From Clostridia bacterium (GTDB lineage: Bacteria; Bacillota; Clostridia; TANB77; CAG-465), in assembly GCA_045537895.1 (NCBI GenBank), contig JAZSQI010000044.1, positions 6,307-70,306 on the forward strand: a stretch of 64,000 nt of DNA, written 5' to 3'. The notes beneath the pieces are model-generated. The model searched no databases. It was given only the letters and a program-made list of their open reading frames with translations, and was not told the origin of the DNA. The position numbers were made by a program, and so were the translations under genes. Below are positions 166 to 18,031 of the stretch, piece by piece (position 1 is the first letter of the stretch; each line of letters begins with the position of its first letter).

Positions 166-220
166 AATAATGTATATTTTTTGTGATTATTTTACAAAAA
201 AGTATACATTATTTTCTTTT
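166..220 (+). terminator. Rho-independent terminator
   Basis: AATAATGTATA (166-176) pairs with TATACATTATT (203-213), followed by a T-rich tract. Confidence 0.55.
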
Positions 221-255
221 TCTGATATAATATACAAAAATATATAATGGAGTGA

Positions 256-2463
256 GTGTTGTTAATGTTAAGAGGTTTTGTTAAAAGAAAAAAATTCATA
301 TATATATTGTTTGGGATTTGTATGATGCTTGTGTTTGGAAAAAATAATTGTTTTGCTTACGTAAAATCTACAATTTCAGATAGTTTTCCAGCAAGTTATC
401 AAAGTTATATAGATAAAATAAAAAAAGAACATCCAAATTGGGTATTAAAAGCTTTTTATACACATTTAGATTGGAATGATGTGCTTGATTCAGAAGCTTC
501 TGGAACATATTCTAGAATTCAAAATTCAGCATATGGAGATGCTTGGAAGAAAATAGAGGCATCAAATAGTAGTGCATATAATGCAGCTGGTTTTGTTCTT
601 GCGTCAAGGTCAGCAGTTGCATATACATTAGATCCAAGAAATTTCTTGAATGATGAAGGTATTTTCCAATTTAGAGTTATAGATGCAAATGTAGATTCAG
701 ATACAGAATCTGCTGTAAATGAAGTAGCTTTTAATACTCCTATGTATAACGCTAAATATAATGGTGAGAAATATTCAACTATAATTAAAAACGTAGGAAC
801 AGAAAAGAAAATAGCTCCAACATTTATTATATCAAGAATAAGGCAAGAAACAGCTTGTGATATTATTAATAACGGTTCAATAAATGGAAAAAACTCAAAA
901 TACCCTAACTATTATAATTTCTTTAATATTGGAGCAGTGGACGGAAATGGTGCTGTACAAGCTGGTATTAATTTAGCATATTCAATGGGATGGAACACAC
1001 CTAAAATAGCAATTGCTGGTGGAATGGATTGGTTAAATAAAAAATATGTAAAATATGGACAAAATACAGTATACTTCCAAAAATTTGATGTTGCAAATCC
1101 ATATGGTAATGCAACAGTAATGCTTTCATCACAATATATGACCAATATATTAGCGCCAAAAGGGGAAGCAAAAATAGCATACAATGGTATTTCAAGAGCA
1201 GGTACATTAAATAATACATATACATTCTATATACCAATTTATGATAATATGCCATCACTTGCTTCACCAGTTCCAACGTTAGGTTACTATGAAAATGATA
1301 ATACAATGGTATATTTAGACGATCCTAGCGATAATCTTTCAGATACTTTTAAAATTAGATCATCTGCTGATTCATCAAGTAATAGTAATGTAATATGTAC
1401 GTTAGTAGAGCCAAGTGATGTAAATAAAAAGACAATATTTACAAGACTAAAAAAAGGTATAGATACAGGTTGGGATTATGTACAATTTGAAAAAGACGGA
1501 AAGATAATAGAAGGATATATTTGGAATTCATATGTATATGAATATTCATACACAAAAGTTACAGGTGTAAGTTTGAATAGTACATCAAAAACATTAAGGG
1601 TTGGAGATACGTATTCTCTTATAGCAACAGTTGAGCCTACAGGTGCTAAGTTTAAAGATGTAGAATGGAGCAGTTCAAATAGTAAAGTTGTTACTGTAGA
1701 TAATAATGGAAATATAAAAGCAGTTGCAGCAGGTTCGGCAGTAGTAACTGTTAAAACTAAAGACCAAGCAAAAACAGCTACATGTGTTGTTAATGTTACT
1801 GATAAAAATCCTAGCATAGCTTTAGATAAAACTGAGTATAGTGTAATTAATGGCAAGAGTATATCATTTAGGGCTACAATTACAGATACAGATATTACTG
1901 AATTTGATACAGTAATTGAAAATGAAAATATAGCTAAAATTGAGAATGGAAAAATAGTTGGAATATCAGAAGGGGAGACAAAAATAATTGTAACTATAAA
2001 AGGAACAAATATAAAAGCAGAGGCAACGGTAAAAGTTACTGAGCTTAAAGATGGAGATATAGTTATAGATGAAAGTTTAAGTGTAGCCGAAGATATAATT
2101 ACTAATGTTAATACAGGAACTAAAGTTAAAGATATATTAGAAAAAATAACAACAACATATGATATAGAAGTAAAAAATATTTCTGATAAAGTATTAGTAG
2201 AGCATGATGAAATTGGAACAGGTACAAAAATTAATATTAAAAAGCCAAATGATGAAATAATTTGTACATATTCAATTGTTGTATCTGGAGATGTAAATGG
2301 TGATGGCATTGTTGATTCAATGGATATGTATAATACAATCCAACATATATTGGAAAATAAAGTTCTTGAGAATGTATTATTCAAAGCCGGAGATACAAAT
2401 TCTGATTTAAAAATCGATTCTATGGATATGTATAATATTATACAAATAATTTTGAAAAAATAG
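256..2463 (+). CDS. Secreted peptidoglycan hydrolase: GH73-type endo-beta-N-acetylglucosaminidase + SH3b + Big_2 Ig-like repeats + C-terminal dockerin-like repeat pair
   Basis: Hydrophobic N-terminus. RIRQETACD and YNFFNIGA glucosaminidase-type motifs. GWDYVQFEKDGKIIEGYIW is SH3b-like. VTGVSLNS...VVTVKT is Big_2-like. GDVNGDGIVDSMDMYN and GDTNSDLKIDSMDMYN form a dockerin duplicate. The start could be GTG 256 or ATG 265. Confidence 0.8.
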   Translation: MLLMLRGFVKRKKFIYILFGICMMLVFGKNNCFAYVKSTISDSFPASYQSYIDKIKKEHPNWVLKAFYTHLDWNDVLDSEASGTYSRIQNSAYGDAWKKIEASNSSAYNAAGFVLASRSAVAYTLDPRNFLNDEGIFQFRVIDANVDSDTESAVNEVAFNTPMYNAKYNGEKYSTIIKNVGTEKKIAPTFIISRIRQETACDIINNGSINGKNSKYPNYYNFFNIGAVDGNGAVQAGINLAYSMGWNTPKIAIAGGMDWLNKKYVKYGQNTVYFQKFDVANPYGNATVMLSSQYMTNILAPKGEAKIAYNGISRAGTLNNTYTFYIPIYDNMPSLASPVPTLGYYENDNTMVYLDDPSDNLSDTFKIRSSADSSSNSNVICTLVEPSDVNKKTIFTRLKKGIDTGWDYVQFEKDGKIIEGYIWNSYVYEYSYTKVTGVSLNSTSKTLRVGDTYSLIATVEPTGAKFKDVEWSSSNSKVVTVDNNGNIKAVAAGSAVVTVKTKDQAKTATCVVNVTDKNPSIALDKTEYSVINGKSISFRATITDTDITEFDTVIENENIAKIENGKIVGISEGETKIIVTIKGTNIKAEATVKVTELKDGDIVIDESLSVAEDIITNVNTGTKVKDILEKITTTYDIEVKNISDKVLVEHDEIGTGTKINIKKPNDEIICTYSIVVSGDVNGDGIVDSMDMYNTIQHILENKVLENVLFKAGDTNSDLKIDSMDMYNIIQIILKK

Positions 2464-2478
2464 TTAGGAGAGTAGAAT

Positions 2479-3849
2479 ATGAAAAAATGTAAAAAAATTC
2501 TTGGTATATTGTTAATAATTATATGCTCTATATGCATATTTAAAAGTGTTGAAGCAACTACAATAACTGCTCCAGCAAGTGTTGAAAAAGGTAAGAGTGT
2601 AACAATAACTGTTAGTGTGCCAAATGTAAATACTGTAGATCTTACAGCAACTGTCTCTGGTGCAGGAACAAGTGGGACAATTAGATTAGTAGATGGTTCT
2701 ATGACAGGAGAAGCGAAAACTTTTTCTAAAAGTATAACAGTTACTCCAACAACTGCCGGAACTATAACAGTTTCAGTTTCATCTGGTTCTAATGCTGTTT
2801 TAAATGGTGCATATGTAGATGTTGCAGCATCAAAGACAATAACTGTGACTGAACCACCTGTAGTAACACAACCTTCTAGTAGTGCAACAAATAATACAAC
2901 TCCAACAACACCTTCAACAAATACAACGACTCAAAAACCAACAAATAAAAATACTAACACAACTACAACAAAATCTTCAAATGCCAATTTAAAAAATATG
3001 ATATTAAGTGTAGAAGGATTATTACCTGCATTTAGTAAAGATATAACAACATATTCTTTAAATGTTGGAGAAAACGTAAATGAAATTAAAGTAAATGCAT
3101 CAGTTGTACATAGCAGAGCTACATATTCTGTATCAGGAAACACTAATTTAAAAGAAGGAGAAAATGTAGTAACAGTAAAAGTAACAGCAGAAGATGGAAC
3201 AGTAAAAACATATACAATAAATGTATTAAAAGCAGATGATCCTGTAAAATCAGATGCAACTTTATACTCATTAATAATAGAGGATGTAGATTTAGGTAAA
3301 GCTTTTGATCCTAATGTGACTGAGTATAATGCAGGAGATATAACTGTAAAAGCAGATAAATTAAATATATATGCATATACAAATAATGAAAATGCAAAAG
3401 TAGAAATATTAGGAAATGAAAATTTGACTGTTGGAGAAGGAAAAATTATAATAAGAGTTACTTCTGAAAATGGAAAAATAACAAAAGACTATGTTGTTTC
3501 CTTTAATAAACTATATTCAGAAGAAAGTGTAGAGGCAGATAGTAATGCGCTAAAAGAAACCTCAAAAAAAGTATCATTTGGTGATAAAATAAAAACTTTT
3601 TATAACAATACTTTGAAACCAAACATGACAGTTATAATTCTGTACGTGTTTATTTGGGTTGAATTTATACAAGTAGCATATTTATATGAAAAATTAAAGA
3701 AATATGAGGAACTTGATAAAATTACTATTAGTAGAAAATTAAAAAATCTATATATAAAAGAAATAAATAAAGATGATAAGAAAAATGAAAAGAAAACAAG
3801 AAGAGGAAAAGAAAATCCAATTTTTCCAGATGAAGAAGATAAAAAATAA
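2479..3849 (+). CDS. Type I membrane surface protein: signal peptide, ~100-aa beta-rich head, Thr/Pro/Asn linker, two cadherin-like beta-sandwich domains, C-terminal TM helix and Lys/Glu-rich tail
   Basis: GGAG SD sits 8 nt upstream and the gene begins 15 nt after the hydrolase gene. NANLKNMILSVEGLLPAFSKDITTYSLNV and ATLYSLIIEDVDLGKAFDPNVTEYNAG match the cadherin-like (LSxL..G.L.P.F...YxxxV) pattern. The TM segment is VIILYVFIWVEFIQVAYLY. Confidence 0.75.
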   Translation: MKKCKKILGILLIIICSICIFKSVEATTITAPASVEKGKSVTITVSVPNVNTVDLTATVSGAGTSGTIRLVDGSMTGEAKTFSKSITVTPTTAGTITVSVSSGSNAVLNGAYVDVAASKTITVTEPPVVTQPSSSATNNTTPTTPSTNTTTQKPTNKNTNTTTTKSSNANLKNMILSVEGLLPAFSKDITTYSLNVGENVNEIKVNASVVHSRATYSVSGNTNLKEGENVVTVKVTAEDGTVKTYTINVLKADDPVKSDATLYSLIIEDVDLGKAFDPNVTEYNAGDITVKADKLNIYAYTNNENAKVEILGNENLTVGEGKIIIRVTSENGKITKDYVVSFNKLYSEESVEADSNALKETSKKVSFGDKIKTFYNNTLKPNMTVIILYVFIWVEFIQVAYLYEKLKKYEELDKITISRKLKNLYIKEINKDDKKNEKKTRRGKENPIFPDEEDKK

Positions 3850-3946
3850 TTAATACGTTTTTTATGAATTAATATATTTAAAATAGTAAATAATAATGTG
3901 TATACACATGTTATTATTTGCTATTTTTTTGTTTAAAGGAGTGAAG

Positions 3947-6172
3947 ATGTTGTTAAATATTATTAGTTATTTAAAAAGAATTAATACTAAAGTTATAAAA
4001 ATAATATTAGTGTTTTTTGCTATAACAATTATATATATAACAAATAACATTTTTGCTGCTACAAAAGTTACAGGAATATCAGCTTTTCCAACTAGTTATC
4101 AAGTTTATCTTAAACAGTTACAAAAATTACATCCAAACTGGAGTTTCACTGCTCTAAATACAGGATTAAATTGGAATGATGTAATACGTGGCGAAGGACC
4201 ATATATTGATTTAAAAAGAAGTGCAGTACCTCTTTCTTTTGCAGAATTGTGGAAATGGAAAAATAGCAGTGGTAATTACAACGTAATAGAAGAAGGCTGG
4301 GTTACAGCTTCTGAAAAGGCAGTTAGCTATAGTATGGATCCTAGAAGATATTTAAATGAAATGAATATATTTCAATTTGAAACGTTAAACTATGATTCTA
4401 GCCAGCAAAATCAGGATGGAGTAGAGCAAATATTTTATGGTACTTTGATGTATAAAAATAATATATCATATACAGATACGAGTGGTAATAAACAAACAAT
4501 TAACAAAACATATAGTAAAGTTGTAATGGAGGCTGCTGCAAAATATGGTGTTAGTCCATATCATTTGGCATCTAGAATAAAACAAGAAACAGGATGTGAT
4601 ATGCAGAACAATACTTCAATAAAGGGAAATGTAGCAGGTTATGTCGGCCTATATAATTACTATAACATAGGAGCAACGGGTGGAGATGATCCTGCAATAT
4701 CAGGGCTTGCTTATGCAAGAAGCGTAGGTTGGACCACGCCAGAAAAAGCTATACTTGGTGGAGCACAGTTTTTAGCTGAAAAATATATAAGTGTTGGACA
4801 ATATACAATATATTTACAAAAATTTAATGTAAATGATGACGCATCATATGCTTTGTATACACACCAGTACATGCAAAACATATTAGCACCAGCAAGTGAA
4901 TCGGTATCAGTATATAATGCGTATAACGATATGGGATTAATAGATATACCATTTAATTTTGTTATACCAGTATATAATAATATGCCAGAATCTCCAGCTG
5001 ATATATATGTACAAAATCCAAATGATTTTGTTTTAGATAGTACAAAAGTATATACAACAGTAAATTTAAATGTACGTTCTGGACCTGGAACGGGTAATAG
5101 TACAATACTTACAGTGCCTAAAGGTACTGTAATGACAAGAATTGCAAGAGGAATTCAAGCAGGAGAAAGATGGGATAAGGTAAAACTAAGTACTGGCGTA
5201 GAAGGCTATGTGTTCCAAAGCTATATTAAAGATTATGCATATACAAAAGTAACAGGAGTAACTTTAAATAAAACTAACATAGAGATAAACGTTGGAGATG
5301 AAGTTACTTTAATACCTAATATATCACCAGTATCAGCGACATATAAAGAGGTGTATTGGTCTTCTAATAATAATGAGATAGTAACGGTATCAGAAACAGG
5401 TGTTGTGACTGGCTTAAACGAAGGCTCAGCAATAGTTACAGTTACAACAGAAGAACAATTAAAAACAGCAAGTTGTGTTATAAATGTTAGAAAAAGACAG
5501 CCATCAATATCACTTGATAAAACTATATATACCGTTATAAAAGATAAGAGTTCATCTTTTAACATTACAATAAATGATTCTGATATATCAGAGTATGACA
5601 TTGTAATTGATGATGAAAATATAGCAAAGATAGAGAATGGAAAAATATTGGGAATATCTGAAGGAACAACTAAAATAACTGTAAATATTAGGGGAACAGA
5701 CATAAAAAAACAAGCTACTATAAATGTTATAGAGCTTAAAGAGGGAGAGATACAATTTGATGAAAGTGTAAATGTAGATGGAGACGTAATTTCTAATATA
5801 TCGCTTGGTACTAAAGTTCAAAATTTGAAAGAAATGGTACAGACTACATATATGATTTCAATTAGAAATATTAATAATGAAGAATTAAATGAAGATGCAT
5901 TAGTAACAAATGGTGCTAAAGTTCAAATATTAAATGCAGAAAATGAAATAGTGTATGAGTATAGTGTATTAATTTACGGGGATGTAAATTTAGATGGAAA
6001 AATAAATTCAGGTGATTTATTAAGTTTAGTAAAACACTTAAATAAAAGTAATGTGTATAACAATCAGATTGTAATAAAATCAGCTGATGTAAATTTAGAT
6101 GAGAAAATAAACTCAGGTGATTTACTAAGAATAGTAAAACACTTAAATGGCACAGCTACACTTGGAAGTTAG
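3947..6172 (+). CDS. Paralog of 256..2463: GH73 glucosaminidase + SH3b + Big_2 repeats + dockerin-like repeats
   Basis: AAAGGAG SD precedes ATG 3947 (the ORF track starts earlier, at 3896). RIKQETGCD and YNYYNIGA motifs. GERWDKVKLSTGVEGYVF is SH3b-like. GDVNLDGKINSGDLLSLVKHL and ADVNLDEKINSGDLLRIVKHL form the dockerin pair. Confidence 0.8.
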   Translation: MLLNIISYLKRINTKVIKIILVFFAITIIYITNNIFAATKVTGISAFPTSYQVYLKQLQKLHPNWSFTALNTGLNWNDVIRGEGPYIDLKRSAVPLSFAELWKWKNSSGNYNVIEEGWVTASEKAVSYSMDPRRYLNEMNIFQFETLNYDSSQQNQDGVEQIFYGTLMYKNNISYTDTSGNKQTINKTYSKVVMEAAAKYGVSPYHLASRIKQETGCDMQNNTSIKGNVAGYVGLYNYYNIGATGGDDPAISGLAYARSVGWTTPEKAILGGAQFLAEKYISVGQYTIYLQKFNVNDDASYALYTHQYMQNILAPASESVSVYNAYNDMGLIDIPFNFVIPVYNNMPESPADIYVQNPNDFVLDSTKVYTTVNLNVRSGPGTGNSTILTVPKGTVMTRIARGIQAGERWDKVKLSTGVEGYVFQSYIKDYAYTKVTGVTLNKTNIEINVGDEVTLIPNISPVSATYKEVYWSSNNNEIVTVSETGVVTGLNEGSAIVTVTTEEQLKTASCVINVRKRQPSISLDKTIYTVIKDKSSSFNITINDSDISEYDIVIDDENIAKIENGKILGISEGTTKITVNIRGTDIKKQATINVIELKEGEIQFDESVNVDGDVISNISLGTKVQNLKEMVQTTYMISIRNINNEELNEDALVTNGAKVQILNAENEIVYEYSVLIYGDVNLDGKINSGDLLSLVKHLNKSNVYNNQIVIKSADVNLDEKINSGDLLRIVKHLNGTATLGS

Positions 6173-6184
6173 AAGGAGGTATAT

Positions 6185-7537
6185 ATGAAAAAAATATTAA
6201 AGAAAATTATATTAGTAAATGTATTTTTATCTGTAATAATATTTGCAAGTAGTATTTATGCAGCAACAGCAAATATTTCAGCTACTAAAGTTGAAGCATA
6301 TGTTGGTGATGCTGTAAATATTAATATAAGCATAAATGCTGCTGCATGGAATTTAAATGTAAGCGGTAGTGGAATAACAGGTGAGAATATAACTGGATTT
6401 AATATGGAGGGTACGAATCAGTCAATTAATAAATCATATAGATTAAATACAAGTTCAGCAGGCACGTATACTATATATTTAAAAGGTGATATATCTGATG
6501 GTGCAACAGATATAACAACAGATATTTCAAATAGTGTTACGGTAACAGTAAAAACTAAACCAGTAACCACTCCAGCTACTACTCCACCAACACCATCTAC
6601 AAATACCACAACCCAAACAAAGCCACAGGCTAATACTACAACAAGTAACAAGAATGATAGTACAACTACAACATTAAGTAGTAATGCATATTTAAGTCAG
6701 TTTAGGGTAGACCAACCAGGCATTACACCAGCTTTTAGTAAAACAATATATAATTATGCTATAACAGTTGGGGAAGATGTTAATAATTTAAATGTGACGG
6801 CAGTGCCAGAATATAATAAAGCAACAGTATCAATATCAGGTAATACAAATTTAAAGGAAGGAGATAATACTATTACAATAAGAGTTACAGCTCAAGATAA
6901 AAAAAATGTAAAAACATATAGAATAATAGTTACTAAAACGGATGATCCAGTAAAATCAAATGCATATCTACAAAGTCTTTTTGTAAAAGATTTAACATTA
7001 AATCCTACGTTTTCTGCAGAAGTATTTGAATATACATTAGGTGCAGTTGATAGTTCTCTTAAAAAAATAGAAATAGCTGCTTTTCCAGTAAATGAAAATG
7101 CAAAGGTTGATGTTGTTGGAAATGATAATTTAGTAGTTGGGGAAAATACAATAAAAGTAATAGTTACATCGGAAAATGCAAAAAATCAAAAGACGTACAC
7201 ATTGAAAGTTACAAAGGAGAAAGAGGAAAATAGATTAGTGGATTTAAATTCTGATGAAGACAAAGCTGAAAAAAGTGAGGCAGATGAAAGTAGTAATTTT
7301 AGGGAAGTATTATCTATGATGAGATTAACATTAAAGGAAAATGCAGCAGTACTTCTTTTATATGCATTAGCTTGGATTGAATTTTTGCAAGTAGTATATT
7401 TATATGAAAAAATAAAGAAAATGGAAATAAAAAATGTTGGAACTAATATAAAAGAAGAAATTGAAATAGATAAAGAAAAAAGAATATTAAAAAGAATAAG
7501 AGTTAAAGAAAATATAATAGAAAAAGATGATAAGTAA
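6185..7537 (+). CDS. Paralog of 2479..3849: signal peptide, beta-rich head, Thr/Pro linker, two cadherin-like domains, C-terminal TM helix and charged tail
   Basis: GGAGG SD; the gene begins 12 nt after the upstream gene. SNAYLSQFRVDQPGITPAFSKTIYNYAITV and NAYLQSLFVKDLTLNPTFSAEVFEYTLG are the cadherin-like segments. The TM motif LLLYALAWIEFLQVVYLYEKIKK is conserved with the paralog. Confidence 0.75.
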   Translation: MKKILKKIILVNVFLSVIIFASSIYAATANISATKVEAYVGDAVNINISINAAAWNLNVSGSGITGENITGFNMEGTNQSINKSYRLNTSSAGTYTIYLKGDISDGATDITTDISNSVTVTVKTKPVTTPATTPPTPSTNTTTQTKPQANTTTSNKNDSTTTTLSSNAYLSQFRVDQPGITPAFSKTIYNYAITVGEDVNNLNVTAVPEYNKATVSISGNTNLKEGDNTITIRVTAQDKKNVKTYRIIVTKTDDPVKSNAYLQSLFVKDLTLNPTFSAEVFEYTLGAVDSSLKKIEIAAFPVNENAKVDVVGNDNLVVGENTIKVIVTSENAKNQKTYTLKVTKEKEENRLVDLNSDEDKAEKSEADESSNFREVLSMMRLTLKENAAVLLLYALAWIEFLQVVYLYEKIKKMEIKNVGTNIKEEIEIDKEKRILKRIRVKENIIEKDDK

Positions 7538-14407: not shown

Positions 14408-14525
14408 TAGTAGGGTATTGACATATAGTGTATAATATATATGTACCTTTTTCTAGGATGTAACTTTCCTTAAGAGTTATTTCTTGGTTTTAGGTGAAAA
14501 TGAATAATTTAAGGAGGTCATTAAA

Positions 14526-14789
14526 ATGACAAAAGAAAGAAAAGCAGAACTTATAAAAACTTATGCTCAAGGTGAAAATGATACAGGAAGTACAGAAGTA
14601 CAAGTAGCATTATTAACTGAAAGAATTAATGAATTAACAGAGCATTTAAAAGTTCATAAAAAAGACGAACACTCAAGAAGAGGTCTTTTAAACATGGTTG
14701 GTAAGAGAAAAAGCTTACTAAGATATCTTGAAGGTAGAGATATTGAAAAATACCGTGAATTAATTGCTAAATTAGGAATTAGAAAATAG
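14526..14789 (+). CDS. rpsO: 30S ribosomal protein S15
   Basis: AAGGAGG SD. The 87-aa protein carries the S15 hallmarks [35 protein letters not shown]. Confidence 0.97.
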
Positions 14790-14798
14790 TAATTTATG

Positions 14799-14828
14799 GA
14801 GTAGCATTATCGCTACTCTTCTTTTTTA
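14799..14828 (+). terminator. rpsO terminator
   Basis: GAGTAGC pairs with GCTACTC, followed by CTTCTTTTTT. Confidence 0.7.
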
Positions 14829-14860
14829 TTAATTTTTTTAATTAAATTTGACATAAATGC

Positions 14861-14889
14861 TTGACAAAAAGTTTTGTTTGTTGTAAAAT
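14861..14889 (+). promoter_or_regulatory. Sigma-A-like promoter of ncRNA unit A
   Basis: TTGACA (14861-14866), 17-nt spacer, TAAAAT (14884-14889). Confidence 0.6.
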
Positions 14890-14895
14890 ATATAT

Positions 14896-15350
14896 CACTA
14901 ACCTAATTTTTATTGATATTAATTATATATCAAGGAGTATTAGAATGTTAGGTATTAATTATGTGTTGAGAATTCTATTATTATTTTTTTGTTGACAAGT
15001 CACAAAATACCATTAACGTGAGATAAAAAGAAGACGAAGTATAAACTGAATTCTTTTTGGTGTGTTACTAACGAAGGTACAGAACTCAAAATACACATAT
15101 TAATATAATCCTAACTGGATTGATAGAGAAAGTGGCAATCTAGTTATAAATAATGTGAAATATGAATGTATAAAGTAGCATTAGCAGAGTAGACTTGGCA
15201 AAATCTAAATTTTAAATAATTAGAACCTGTTAATTATTTTGTAAAATATTAGATACTCTGTGGAATTTAAATGAGTTGCATGACAAGAACTCATCCAAAT
15301 GTCTATAAAGCCATAAGAACGCCTCCGGCGCCCATAAGGGCGCCTTTTCT
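14896..15350 (+). ncRNA. Candidate large structured ncRNA, unit A (~455 nt); family not recognised
   Basis: Runs from its own promoter to a GC-only terminator (GGCGCCC/GGGCGCC 15327-15344, then TTTT). No ORF is conserved with unit B. It shares a 5' hairpin and a 3' multi-helix domain with unit B, including compensatory stem changes. Confidence 0.6.
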
Positions 15351-15393
15351 ATTATACAGCCATAGTAAATATATGTTAGTTAATACTTTTTTC

Positions 15394-15421
15394 TTGACAT
15401 TATGAATAAAAAGAGTATAAT
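15394..15421 (+). promoter_or_regulatory. Sigma-A-like promoter of ncRNA unit B
   Basis: TTGACA (15394-15399), 16-nt spacer, TATAAT (15416-15421). Confidence 0.6.
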
Positions 15422-15427
15422 ATATCT

Positions 15428-15940
15428 ACTAGTTAATTTTTATATTGATATTAACTATATATCAAGGATTAGTATATTAAATGATGTGAAAAATATTAAA
15501 GTATAATTTGGTTATTTCATATATCGTCATATCACGTTGTACATAGAGGAATGTATAATAAAAATATGATGAGCCATTGCTACACTGTAAGTAGAAGAAT
15601 TTACTGTAAGGCAAGGAGAATTGTTATAACTTTATTTACTTAATGACGGTTTCTTGGCTCCCGTTTGATTTTATCACTCATTTTAATATAAAATTAGCAA
15701 TAATAGCTGGAAAGTGAGGAGTAGAAATGGCCGATATCTAGAAAGCTTAGCTAGCAAATAGTATGAAAATGTGGGAAATGAGTAATACTAGCGAAGAGAC
15801 ATGGCAAAATCTACATTTGAATTGAGAGAGTCGCGAATCTTCTCACTAAAATAGTAGACTTCGTGGATAATAATTGGGCTTCCCAAAAGCTCATCCAATG
15901 TCTATAAAGCCAACCGGGCGCCTTAGTAGGGCGCCCTTTA
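15428..15940 (+). ncRNA. Candidate large structured ncRNA, unit B (~510 nt), paralog of unit A
   Basis: Same 5' hairpin as unit A (TTGATAT-N7-ATATCAA at 15445-15465). Same 3' blocks (TGGCAAAATCTACATTT, CCAATGTCTATAAAGCC). GC-only terminator GGGCGCC/GGCGCCC at 15916-15936. Confidence 0.6.
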
Positions 15941-16022
15941 CCGTTGTTTAGTTAAAATTAATTGAAATTGTGATAAATATAATATATAATACAAGATATA
16001 TGAAAAGGGATTGAGGAAATAG

Positions 16023-17978
16023 ATGGGCAAAAAAGTAATAATAGCAGAAAAACCAAGCGTTGCAAGAGAATTTGCAAAAGCTTTAAATATAAATGGTAGA
16101 AATCAAAATGGGTATATAGAATCAGAAGAATATGTAGTAACATGGTGCGTTGGACATCTAGTTACGATGAGTTACCCTGAAAAATATGATGAAAATTTAA
16201 GGTATTGGAATTTGAAAACATTACCTTTTATTCCAGTAGAGTTTAAATACGAAATAATAGATAGTGTATCAAAACAATTTGAAATTATATCTAATATACT
16301 AAATAGAGAAGATGTTGAAACCATCTATGTATGTACTGACTCAGGGCGTGAAGGAGAATATATATACAGATTAGTAGATGAAATGGCAGGAAATCCAAAT
16401 AAAGATAAAAGAAGAGTCTGGATTGATTCTCAAACAGAGGAAGCAATTAAAGAGGGAATAGCAAGCGCTAAAAAATTAGATGAATATAATAGTTTATCTG
16501 ATTCTGCATATTTAAGAGCAAAAGAAGATTATTTAATAGGAATAAATTTTTCTAGACTGTTATCAATAATTTATGGAAAAGAGCTTGCAAAAAAACTTAA
16601 TCAGGACAAAGCAGTTATTTCTATTGGGCGTGTTATGACTTGTGTTCTTGGAATGATTGTAAAAAGAGAAAGAGAGATAAGAGATTTTAAAAAAGTAAAC
16701 TTCTATAAAATACAGGGGTTGTTTGGTGAAACCTTAGATGGTAGTATAAATGCTGAGTGGAAAGCAACGCAAGGTTCTAAATATTTTGAAAGTGTAAAAT
16801 TATATAATGAAACTGGCTTTAAGAAAAAAGAAGATGCCGAAAGTTTAATAGAAGAGTTAAGACGAAATAATGAATTTGGAATAGTAAAAGAAATAACTAA
16901 AAAAAATCAAAAAGAAAAACCACCTTTACTTTTTAATTTGGCAGAAATACAAAATGAATGCAGTAAGAGATTTAAGATTACACCAGAGGAAACGTTAAAT
17001 ATAATACAAGAATTGTATGAGAAAAAACTTGTTACATATCCTAGAACTGATGCTAGAGTATTATCTACTGCAGTTGCAAAGGAAATATCAAAGAACTTAA
17101 ATGGACTATATAAATCTAACATAAATTATGAAATAAAAAAATATATTACAAAAATGGTAAATGAAAAATATAGTACTAATTTATTAAAAACAAAATATGT
17201 TGATGATTCAAAAATAACGGACCATTATGCAATAATTCCAACAGGTCAGGGATTTGAAAATTATACTAATCTTAAAGAACTTCAAAAAGATATATATCAT
17301 TTAATTGTTAGAAGATTTTTAAGTATATTTTATCCTCCTGCTGAATTTAGTAAGGTATCAGTAAAGATTAACGTTGGAAATGAAGAGTTTAACGTAAGTG
17401 GAAGGGTATGTTTAAATCAAGGCTATTTAGAAGTTGCAAAACAAGATAAACAAAAAAATTCTAAAGAAGATGATGACTTAAAAAATGAGAACATCGAATT
17501 ATTAAAGAATTTGAAAAAAGGACAGCAAGTAAAAATAAATGATTTGACTATTAAAGAAGGAGAAACTTCACCACCAAGTAGATATTCGTCAGGTTCTATA
17601 ATACTTGCTATGGAAAATGCAGGTAAATTAATTGAAGATGAAGAACTAAGAGAACAAATAAAGGGTAGTGGTATTGGAACAAGTGCAACAAGAGCAGAGA
17701 TTATAAATAAGCTATGCAGAATAGAGTATATTAGTATAAATAAAAAAACACAAATATTAACACCTACAGAAAAAGGTGAGGCAATATTTGATATTGTTGT
17801 AAAGACAATGCCAGACATGTTAAATCCTGAGCTTACAGCAAGCTGGGAAAAGGGACTTACTATGGTTGCTCAAAATGAGATTAAAGCAGATGAGTTTATG
17901 GGGAAACTTGAAAAGTATGTTAGCTCTAAGGTTATAAAATTAAAAAAGGCATATAATAATTTTTATTACGGGATGTAG
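16023..17978 (+). CDS. topB: DNA topoisomerase III
   Basis: Toprim N-terminus MGKKVIIAEKPSVAREFAKAL and WCVGHL. Type IA core motifs: TDSGREGE, and YPRTD containing the catalytic Tyr. Confidence 0.9.
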   Translation: MGKKVIIAEKPSVAREFAKALNINGRNQNGYIESEEYVVTWCVGHLVTMSYPEKYDENLRYWNLKTLPFIPVEFKYEIIDSVSKQFEIISNILNREDVETIYVCTDSGREGEYIYRLVDEMAGNPNKDKRRVWIDSQTEEAIKEGIASAKKLDEYNSLSDSAYLRAKEDYLIGINFSRLLSIIYGKELAKKLNQDKAVISIGRVMTCVLGMIVKREREIRDFKKVNFYKIQGLFGETLDGSINAEWKATQGSKYFESVKLYNETGFKKKEDAESLIEELRRNNEFGIVKEITKKNQKEKPPLLFNLAEIQNECSKRFKITPEETLNIIQELYEKKLVTYPRTDARVLSTAVAKEISKNLNGLYKSNINYEIKKYITKMVNEKYSTNLLKTKYVDDSKITDHYAIIPTGQGFENYTNLKELQKDIYHLIVRRFLSIFYPPAEFSKVSVKINVGNEEFNVSGRVCLNQGYLEVAKQDKQKNSKEDDDLKNENIELLKNLKKGQQVKINDLTIKEGETSPPSRYSSGSIILAMENAGKLIEDEELREQIKGSGIGTSATRAEIINKLCRIEYISINKKTQILTPTEKGEAIFDIVVKTMPDMLNPELTASWEKGLTMVAQNEIKADEFMGKLEKYVSSKVIKLKKAYNNFYYGM

Positions 17979-17996
17979 AAAAAATATTGGAAATAA

Positions 17997-18025
17997 TTGA
18001 CAAGAAATACACGTGATGGTATAAT
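17997..18025 (+). promoter_or_regulatory. Strong extended -10 promoter of the candidate antitoxin sRNA
   Basis: TTGACA (17997-18002), 17-nt spacer, TGgTATAAT (18017-18025). Confidence 0.65.
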
Positions 18026-18031
18026 ATATAT

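Follow-up and report, generated by a model that had tools for sequence, protein, structure and literature searches.

Large structured RNA units with an exchangeable apical module between rpsO and topB in a narrow clade of gut Clostridia

To our knowledge, few classes of bacterial RNA both exceed 400 nucleotides (nt) and have complex conserved folds. Such classes have each led to new biology, for example RNA-only cages and membrane-associated ribonucleoproteins. The closest parallels to the element reported here, the ROOL, GOLLD and OLE RNAs and the raiA motif, are non-coding RNAs of several hundred nucleotides with many covarying helices and pseudoknots, known from Firmicutes and from gut and rumen metagenomes, and GOLLD is said to carry a variable half beside a conserved half. 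GOLLD, ROOL and OLE are described as forming homo-oligomers (PMC12286853). We analyzed a 64,000-nt stretch (the window) of chromosomal DNA, 27.6% GC, from an uncultured Clostridia bacterium (GenBank assembly GCA_045537895.1, contig JAZSQI010000044.1, positions 6,307 to 70,306), in which the gap of 1233 nt between rpsO, the gene for ribosomal protein S15, and topB, the gene for topoisomerase III, holds two head-to-tail units, A (14861-15350) and B (15394-15945). An original prediction made from the sequence of this window had read them as two paralogous structured RNAs in the size class of the large ornate RNAs, a reading supported here by covariation and by the lack of both an open reading frame (ORF) and an Rfam match.

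Compared with the ornate RNAs, the family of units A and B differs in consensus sequence, helix order and a very narrow distribution, has no prophage association, and includes some members with a module that copies ribosomal RNA (rRNA). We read it as a new family of large (~400-520 nt) trans-acting, possibly dimerizing scaffold RNAs with an exchangeable display module, and assign this reading a probability of roughly 55%. Relatives were found through contigs encoding an identical S15, or related S15 or TopB proteins, from gut metagenomes and metagenome-assembled genomes (MAGs) of Clostridia. Homologues, which the original prediction had proposed to seek, were recovered from these contigs, and the set comprises 12 distinct units from eight sources, ten of them from beyond the window: winA and winB (units A and B), L001, L002, L069, L003a, L003b, L068, L063a, L063b, L048a and L048c.

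Gene structure and non-coding character

The two sigma-A-like promoters foreseen for the units are present at the predicted positions (Table 1) and are the two best sigma-70-type matches in the scanned stretch. The GC-only terminators fared less evenly: both hairpins exist, but the U-tract behind the unit B hairpin is poor. Since, in addition, a terminator scan scored this hairpin on the minus strand only, some read-through past unit B is possible. Terminator-like features number four in the scanned stretch against 0.4 expected. All 12 units have their own promoter of the form TTGAYA-N16/17-TAWAAT and a GC-rich terminal hairpin, the sequence of which differs in nearly every lineage. The retention of both elements in 12 of 12 units, with hairpins unrelated in sequence, supports separate transcripts of the sizes predicted.

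The statement that the gap contains no ORF of 60 aa or more holds for 14830-15957, where the ORF list gives a longest frame of 44-45 aa; a minus-strand ORF of 61 aa (15958-16143) merely touches the gap edge. A six-frame comparison of the 12 units found similarity to be equal in all frames, with frames that switch between units, and none of the 12 keeps a reading frame. Should the units nevertheless encode small proteins, the candidates would be the 16-codon ORF at 14945-14995 of unit A, which follows a Shine-Dalgarno (SD) sequence (AAGGAG, 7 nt before the ATG) and specifies a hydrophobic peptide, or type I toxins, given a type I toxin-like locus 2 kb downstream. However, the mini-ORF, already thought not to be conserved in unit B, has another length or frame or lacks a start codon in every other unit, and the substitutions within helices are compensatory; together with the even similarity across six frames, this leaves a protein product extremely unlikely.

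At the Rfam 15 gathering score, only two transfer RNAs (tRNAs) were found in the whole window. A scan of 14780-16030 at E<=10 returned six random-looking matches far below thresholds, and a scan of five related loci at E<=5 gave nothing meaningful. The absence of hallmarks of transfer-messenger RNA (tmRNA), RNase P, 6S RNA, signal recognition particle RNA, T-box or riboswitch, noted earlier by eye, is thus matched by the absence of any of these among Rfam 15 hits to the units, and ARAGORN detected neither a tRNA nor a tmRNA in them. Covariance models of OLE, ROOL, GOLLD, the raiA motif and HEARO matched neither the gap nor the five related loci, and no description of such an RNA was found in the full text or supplements of the literature. 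Units A and B are almost certainly structured non-coding RNA genes, and the family is probably one that has not been described before and is absent from Rfam.

A covarying fold

Units A and B align over 580 columns with a mean column identity of 75%, conservation being confined to the 5' ~90 nt and the 3' ~200 nt around unrelated centers; a repeat finder gives the same blocks. The near-identical blocks singled out before, TGGCAAAATCTAMATTT (at 15196 and 15802) and CCAA(A)TGTCTATAAAGCC (at 15296 and 15895), are found in both units. In minimum free energy, unit A surpasses its dinucleotide shuffles with z = -3.6 and unit B with z = -2.7.

The 12 units were realigned with a covariance model of the 3' domain, R1 (alignment A5). 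Helices Pa, Pb, Pf and Pd comprise 21 nested pairs, for which 95.8% of cells are paired, compared with 31-48% when partners are slid by one to three columns, and in 12 of the 21 both partners change. In 500 shuffles, which ignore relatedness, the observed values for percentage paired, double changes and covariation score were never reached. Over all tested helices, 40 nested pairs are ~95% paired and 19 are double-changed, so that the helices covary well beyond both the shuffled and the slid controls. The two hairpins that had been seen to differ in sequence between the units while keeping their pairing are Pc (15214-15239; 15823-15845) and Pd (15271-15294; 15876-15892), and Pd covaries across the 12 units.

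A proposed pairing of TAGAC..TGG with CCAA..GTCTA to close a multi-helix junction stands in part. AGAC and GTCT do pair, but the junction-closing role does not hold: CCA pairs better with the adjoining GTGGA, forming helix Pf, which itself covaries, and because the AGAC/GTCT pairing crosses helix Pa, it is best described as a putative pseudoknot, Pk. AGAC lies between Pa and Pb, and GTCT just 5' of the ATAAAGC tail; the pairing is AGAC/GTCT in nine units, GGGC/GCCC in L063a and GGAC/GTCT in L048a.

The predicted 5' hairpin TTGATAT-N7-ATATCAA, followed by AGGA, is present in both units (14913-14933 and 15445-15465), and its 25-mer has two matches in the window against none expected. The 5' leader is complementary to the 7-nt loop of this hairpin (P1) in a covarying manner (GTTAA/TTAAC, ATTCAA/TTGAAT, AATAA/TTATT, TAATT/AATTA), with a summed match length over 11 units that was equalled by 4 of 5000 shuffled leaders. 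With this leader/P1 loop pairing and Pk, two pseudoknots are supported. Downstream of P1 follows a long helix, P2. When the central domain was swapped for GAAA, so that P1 and the outer part of P2 could be aligned, their 19 pairs were 95.1% paired, against 29-58% for slid partners, with seven pairs double-changed. In the middle domain of unit B, TAGCTGG (15704-15710) and TTAGCTA (15747-15753) probably form a helix, as judged from their complementarity, and a hairpin, Pe, pairs TAGTAT (15759-15764) with ATACTA (15785-15790) before an invariant CTAGC. Pe is the only element that RNAalifold recovers in this domain, and three Pe pairs are kept through two-sided changes.

In 7 of the 12 units the apical loop of Pc consists of a 6-nt, GC-rich palindrome, which reads TCGCGA (unit B, L002, L069), TGCGCA (L001) or GCTAGC (L003a, L063b, L048c). 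The string TCGCGA occurs once in the 64-kb window, in the Pc loop of unit B. L001 and L002 are otherwise very close, yet their palindromes differ by a swap at each of the four central positions, and both remain self-complementary. These loops suggest kissing-loop dimers, a parallel to the homo-oligomers of GOLLD, ROOL and OLE that is, in the present family, a sequence hint only, and we regard dimerization as a tentative proposal.

An exchangeable tip, with likeness to ribosomal RNA in some relatives

The original prediction had described a diverged center in each unit. The divergence is real, and the divergent part is in fact the replaceable tip of P2. The module that P2 encloses measures 28 nt in L048c, 43 nt in L048a, 77-94 nt in four units and 126-184 nt in the others, and the modules share no detectable similarity except within a related group formed by L001, L002, L003a and, partly, L069. 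In this group the module resembles rRNA in sense orientation (L001, 4264+190..350; L002, 4441-4540; L003, 4395-4480). The L002 and L003a modules contain exact 16-mers of Escherichia coli 23S rRNA 241-256 (AGTAGCGGCGAGCGAA) and 16S rRNA 1486-1501 (GGGGTGAAGTCGTAAC); that of L001 has the 23S 16-mer exactly and 15 of 16 positions of the 16S 16-mer. Positions 1486-1501 of 16S rRNA form the decoding site's 3' strand, and they overlap the beginning of the universal 1492R primer site. L069 keeps a 16S-like GGGTGAAGTCGTA and has other sequence in place of the 23S-like loop.

The likeness extends to structure. With the Infernal model of the bacterial large-subunit rRNA, L002 4441-4468 aligns to the whole 23S hairpin 236-263, including stem, internal loop and GGCGA loop. 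The closing stem of the 23S-like hairpin varies yet pairs (CTTCT/AGAGG or CTTGC/GCAAG, against CCCC/GGGG in rRNA), and because it differs between units and stays paired, selected mimicry is indicated rather than a recent copy. The possibility that the rRNA-like pieces arose as assembly chimeras was considered and rejected, as they recur in independent samples with covarying flanks. A named protein partner of 23S helix 236-263 was not found in the literature.

Leaders of ribosomal protein genes (L1, L10, L20, S15) offer a precedent for such likeness, which in their case imitates a protein-binding site of rRNA; L001, L002 and L003a have a hairpin that reproduces the loops of an rRNA hairpin and has a covarying stem. 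Those leaders, however, are short elements in the 5' untranslated region of the operon that they regulate, whereas the mimic here tips an independent 500-nt RNA downstream of rpsO, and most units, including both in the window, lack an rRNA mimic. The placement is likewise unlike that of a leader, the units lying 3' of rpsO with their own promoter and terminator and with the topB promoter following. In proposed action, the rRNA-copying members resemble the decoys 6S RNA and CsrB/RsmZ, abundant stand-alone RNAs that imitate the natural nucleic-acid ligand of a protein; they have no likeness to these in sequence or structure and no Rfam match, the imitated ligand would be rRNA, and sequestration would be their presumed mode of action.

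The 16S 3' tail may also be represented, by ACCTCCTTT with GATCA upstream in L063a and by CACCTCC in L003b, although the excess of such anti-SD-like strings is weak and post hoc (equalled in 43/2000 and 16/2000 shuffles). These strings bear on a different explanation, in which the units are base-pairing regulatory small RNAs with a core that serves stability or chaperone binding and apical seeds, for example the C-rich anti-SD-like ones, that pair with mRNAs. Modules that differ between paralogues and independent promoter-to-terminator units would fit such RNAs. Conversely, with 400-520 nt, more than 10 helices and two putative pseudoknots, the units by far exceed known seed-type small RNAs in size and degree of structure, and the best-conserved module segments are rRNA-sense and G-rich. 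One of these segments sits in a hairpin that copies an rRNA fold and is therefore no antisense seed. A search of the remainder of the window for copies or complementary targets of the units gave no significant complementarity, only chance AT-rich 12-19-mers. We consider the small-RNA explanation unlikely.

Distribution, proposed action and surroundings

Four loci (L001, L002, L068, L069) have one unit each and three (the window, L003, L063) have two, while L048 has one unit 5' of topB and one 3' of topB ahead of a cation ATPase gene. This last unit, L048c (L048 4470-4880), is complete, with its own promoter, a terminator and the 28-nt tip, and lies ~90 nt upstream of the ATPase gene. As it sits downstream of topB, the RNA is not tied to the rpsO-topB spacer. 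Searches with an nhmmer profile and the covariance model confined the units to a clade in which S15 is at least ~93% identical. Sister genomes with 90-91% identical S15 (L058, L059, L061, L062) have an empty rpsO-topB spacer of 157-161 nt that keeps the topB promoter, and no units were found in more distant rpsO/topB neighborhoods (L049-L053, L054-L062, L075-L080), the distant genomes having other neighbors. When 185,579 species genomes were scanned with a pattern of the 3' domain, 39 loci came up, of which one was true (L010, identical to the L003 contig); two scans each of JGI metagenome contigs and of viral contigs gave no true match. A weak covariance-model match in L065 (E = 0.17) was rejected, as its helices are not kept. 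Contigs of the L001 type recur in at least 18 places, which excludes an assembly artefact.

At the same rpsO-topB site, L054 (2765-3370) and L060 (2765-3347) carry an unrelated insert with a small ORF behind an SD sequence, a length-variable (AC)n microsatellite, a gene for a 381-aa protein of unknown type and a DUF1385 gene. Accessory DNA has a hot spot here, with the units occurring in 0 to 3 copies, and the RNA family is narrow, accessory and copy-number-variable within a narrow clade of uncultured AT-rich gut Clostridia.

Two further explanations can be judged against this distribution. One is that the units are cis-acting, attenuator- or riboswitch-like leaders of the downstream gene, topB or, for L048c, the cation ATPase gene. 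In most loci, units do lie directly upstream of topB, L048c is close to the ATPase gene, the U-tract of unit B is weak, and tandem layouts are known from some riboswitches. Nevertheless, consensus promoters are found in front of all units, and behind the terminator topB has a conserved promoter of its own; unit-free genomes keep this promoter and the same topB; no alternative antiterminator pairing was seen; and a replaceable module of 28-184 nt is unexpected for a ligand sensor. The topB flank is a transcription unit separate from the RNA units, and a leader function is quite improbable.

The other is that the units are RNAs of a mobile or defense system, comparable to omega-RNA, bridge RNA or retron msr/msd, with the module as guide or template and the protein encoded elsewhere. 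A conserved, putatively pseudoknotted scaffold combined with a segment that is hypervariable between copies is indeed shared with the omega-RNA of IscB/TnpB and the bridge RNA of IS110, and the copy number of 0 to 3 at one hot spot, with other inserts there in sister genomes, would suit a mobile element. However, the gene tables of the loci list only a solute-binding protein, rpsO, topB, the ATPase and small unknown ORFs, with no TnpB, IscB, recombinase or reverse-transcriptase gene at any locus; neither HEARO nor another Rfam scaffold matched; no terminal repeats or target duplications were seen, and blastn against phage and plasmid collections, like the viral contig scans, gave no match. The variable part is, moreover, an internal structured domain of 28-184 nt and not a short single-stranded guide, and the rRNA-like segments, with their covarying stems, copy a structure and are not plain guides. 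Such an origin is very unlikely.

We thus favor a stand-alone, trans-acting RNA, on the grounds of the units' own promoters and terminators, the separate topB promoter, the additional unit site in L048 and the fact that sister genomes do without the RNA; and we infer a scaffold with a variable module because an invariant, pseudoknotted core contrasts with a freely exchanged structured tip. Each unit would be transcribed from its own strong sigma-A promoter and end at its own terminator hairpin. The transcript is predicted to fold, from 5' to 3', into the leader/P1 pseudoknot, the long AU-rich P2, a middle domain and a compact 3' domain in which five covarying helices would be tied by the AGAC/GTCT pseudoknot. 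The conserved core may then serve as scaffold for a constant partner, either a protein or a second RNA copy, and the apical module as specificity element; for this part of the model, a trans-acting scaffold with a specificity module, we see the odds as even. For the three relatives that copy rRNA, the likeliest role would be that of decoys or sponges of factors whose normal ligand is rRNA, although we regard a decoy role in the relevant members as possible but rather doubtful. More doubtful still is the fuller version, a possibly dimerizing display RNA with a module that in several members copies 23S 236-263, 16S 1486-1501 and perhaps the 16S 3' tail as an rRNA decoy. Decoys of this kind might titrate proteins of the ribosome or of its biogenesis, or soak up toxins that target rRNA; more speculative is the idea that the rRNA-sense segments guide the neighboring topoisomerase III to rRNA genes.

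Several points weigh against these proposals. The window's own units have no segment that matches E. coli rRNA, and the decoy idea consequently rests on three to four relatives. The palindrome excess in Pc is modest, concerning three of five loop types and equalled by 257/20000 shuffles, and the Pc loop of unit A is not palindromic. The empty rpsO-topB site in sister genomes with 90%-identical S15 means that the RNA is dispensable. A constant partner protein of the core is a postulate, and transcript ends and stability are predictions. Lastly, the phylogeny is shallow, with 12 units of one clade and an Infernal effective sequence number of 3; the 3' alignment A5 was fitted to the model structure; and the shuffle control is uncorrected for relatedness, the slid controls being the fairer comparison and giving a clear result.

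The flanks of the two units are well defined. The S15 protein, identical in L001-L005, matches Pfam Ribosomal_S15, and the product of topB matches the NCBIfam topoisomerase III subfamily with E = 2e-171. Among the ORFs scanned around rpsO, pnp was not found, the remainder of the window not having been searched for it. The window also encodes GlmM, a response regulator, a TtcA-like tRNA thiolase, a solute-binding protein and a P-type ATPase, and at 256-7537 four successive large ORFs with Ig-like (Big_2), cadherin-like, SH3 and type I dockerin domains, which suggest a cellulosome-type surface system in the host. The region 14419-14525 holds the own promoter of rpsO, with a -35 TTGACA at 14419-14424 and TATAAT ~17 nt on, followed by an untranslated leader of ~75 nt. 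This leader may be an element for autoregulation by S15; at the gathering score it matched none of the Rfam S15-leader families. An AT-rich inverted repeat of 14 nt (I2, 86% complementary) at 14823-14836 and 15954-15967 flanks the two-unit block and is probably due to chance in DNA of this GC content, no target-site duplication being seen at this repeat. A transposon or miniature inverted-repeat transposable element was rejected, as there are no terminal repeats beyond this one.

Just after topB, at 17990-18275 (and in L001 6901-7493 and L068 4457-4955), lies a pair resembling a type I toxin-antitoxin system. A plus-strand promoter, TTGACA-N17-TATAAT near 17997, leads to a short RNA with a terminator (stem GAGAAAGTAGCTGGAACTATTTTCTC from ~18078, then a T-run), and a minus-strand ORF of 27 codons runs from 18260 to 18177 (LLSDLIIVLFLMLLLTRELNNHKKNRK) with GGAGG before its start. 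The short RNA contains GTCAGACAATGATTAAC (18061-18077), which is near-identical to 18249-18265, the complement of the start region of the 27-codon ORF. Base pairing between the short RNA and the toxin mRNA is therefore conceivable.

Table 1. Features of the rpsO-topB interval in window coordinates. CM, covariance model; paired strands are separated by a slash.
Feature	Position	Strand	Remarks
rpsO (ribosomal protein S15)	14526-14789	+	upstream flank; terminator 14798-14819; from ORF list and terminator scan
Unit A promoter	14861-14889	+	TTGACA-N17-TAAAAT; 11/12 consensus positions
Unit A transcript, predicted	14896-15349	+	~454 nt; ends inferred from promoter and terminator; nhmmer E = 8e-75
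Unit A 5' pseudoknot (putative)	14904-14933	+	leader TAATT 14904-14908 with P1 loop 14920-14926; P1 stem 14913-14919 / 14927-14933
Unit A long helix P2	14950-15112	+	strands 14950-14966 / 15093-15112; apical domain 14967-15092 (126 nt)
Unit A 3' domain	15176-15311	+	CM R1 match 102.3 bits, E = 2.6e-20
Unit A Pa	15185-15189 / 15256-15260	+	
Unit A Pk (putative pseudoknot)	15191-15194 / 15301-15304	+	AGAC / GTCT
Unit A Pb	15204-15208 / 15249-15253	+	
Unit A Pc hairpin	15214-15239	+	
Unit A Pf	15261-15264 / 15294-15297	+	
Unit A Pd	15271-15277 / 15288-15294	+	
Unit A tail	15305-15311	+	ATAAAGC
Unit A intrinsic terminator	15327-15349	+	GGCGCCC-ATAA-GGGCGCC, then TTTTCT; hairpin 15327-15344
Unit B promoter	15394-15421	+	TTGACA-N16-TATAAT; 12/12 consensus positions
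Unit B transcript, predicted	15428-15945	+	~515 nt; from promoter and terminator scan; nhmmer E = 1e-102
Unit B 5' pseudoknot (putative)	15430-15465	+	leader TAGTTAA 15430-15436 with P1 loop TAACTAT 15452-15458; P1 stem 15445-15451 / 15459-15465
Unit B long helix P2	15472-15690	+	strands 15472-15489 / 15674-15690; apical domain 15490-15673 (184 nt); inverted repeat I1
Unit B middle domain	15691-15782	+	contains conserved AAAATTAGC, probable TAGCTGG/TTAGCTA helix, hairpin Pe
Unit B 3' domain	15783-15910	+	CM R1 match 117.4 bits
Unit B Pa	15792-15796 / 15859-15863	+	
Unit B Pk (putative pseudoknot)	15797-15800 / 15900-15903	+	AGAC / GTCT
Unit B Pb	15810-15814 / 15854-15858	+	
Unit B Pc hairpin	15823-15845	+	palindromic loop TCGCGA 15831-15836
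Unit B Pf	15864-15868 / 15893-15897	+	
Unit B Pd	15876-15881 / 15887-15892	+	
Unit B tail	15904-15910	+	ATAAAGC
Unit B terminal hairpin	15916-15948	+	GGGCGCC-N7-GGCGCCC, then weak U-tract TTTACCGTTGTTT; hairpin 15916-15936
topB promoter and topoisomerase III gene	15962-17978	+	downstream flank; promoter TTGAAA-N17-TATAAT 15962-15990; gene 16023-17978

To the large bacterial RNAs, the family adds a core with two putative pseudoknots, a cassette-like apical domain that is exchanged rapidly, and a copy number of 0-3 at one chromosomal hot spot, and some of its members add exact copies of rRNA elements inside a covarying frame. If this mimicry is functional, these members would represent the first case in bacteria of a stand-alone RNA made in imitation of rRNA.

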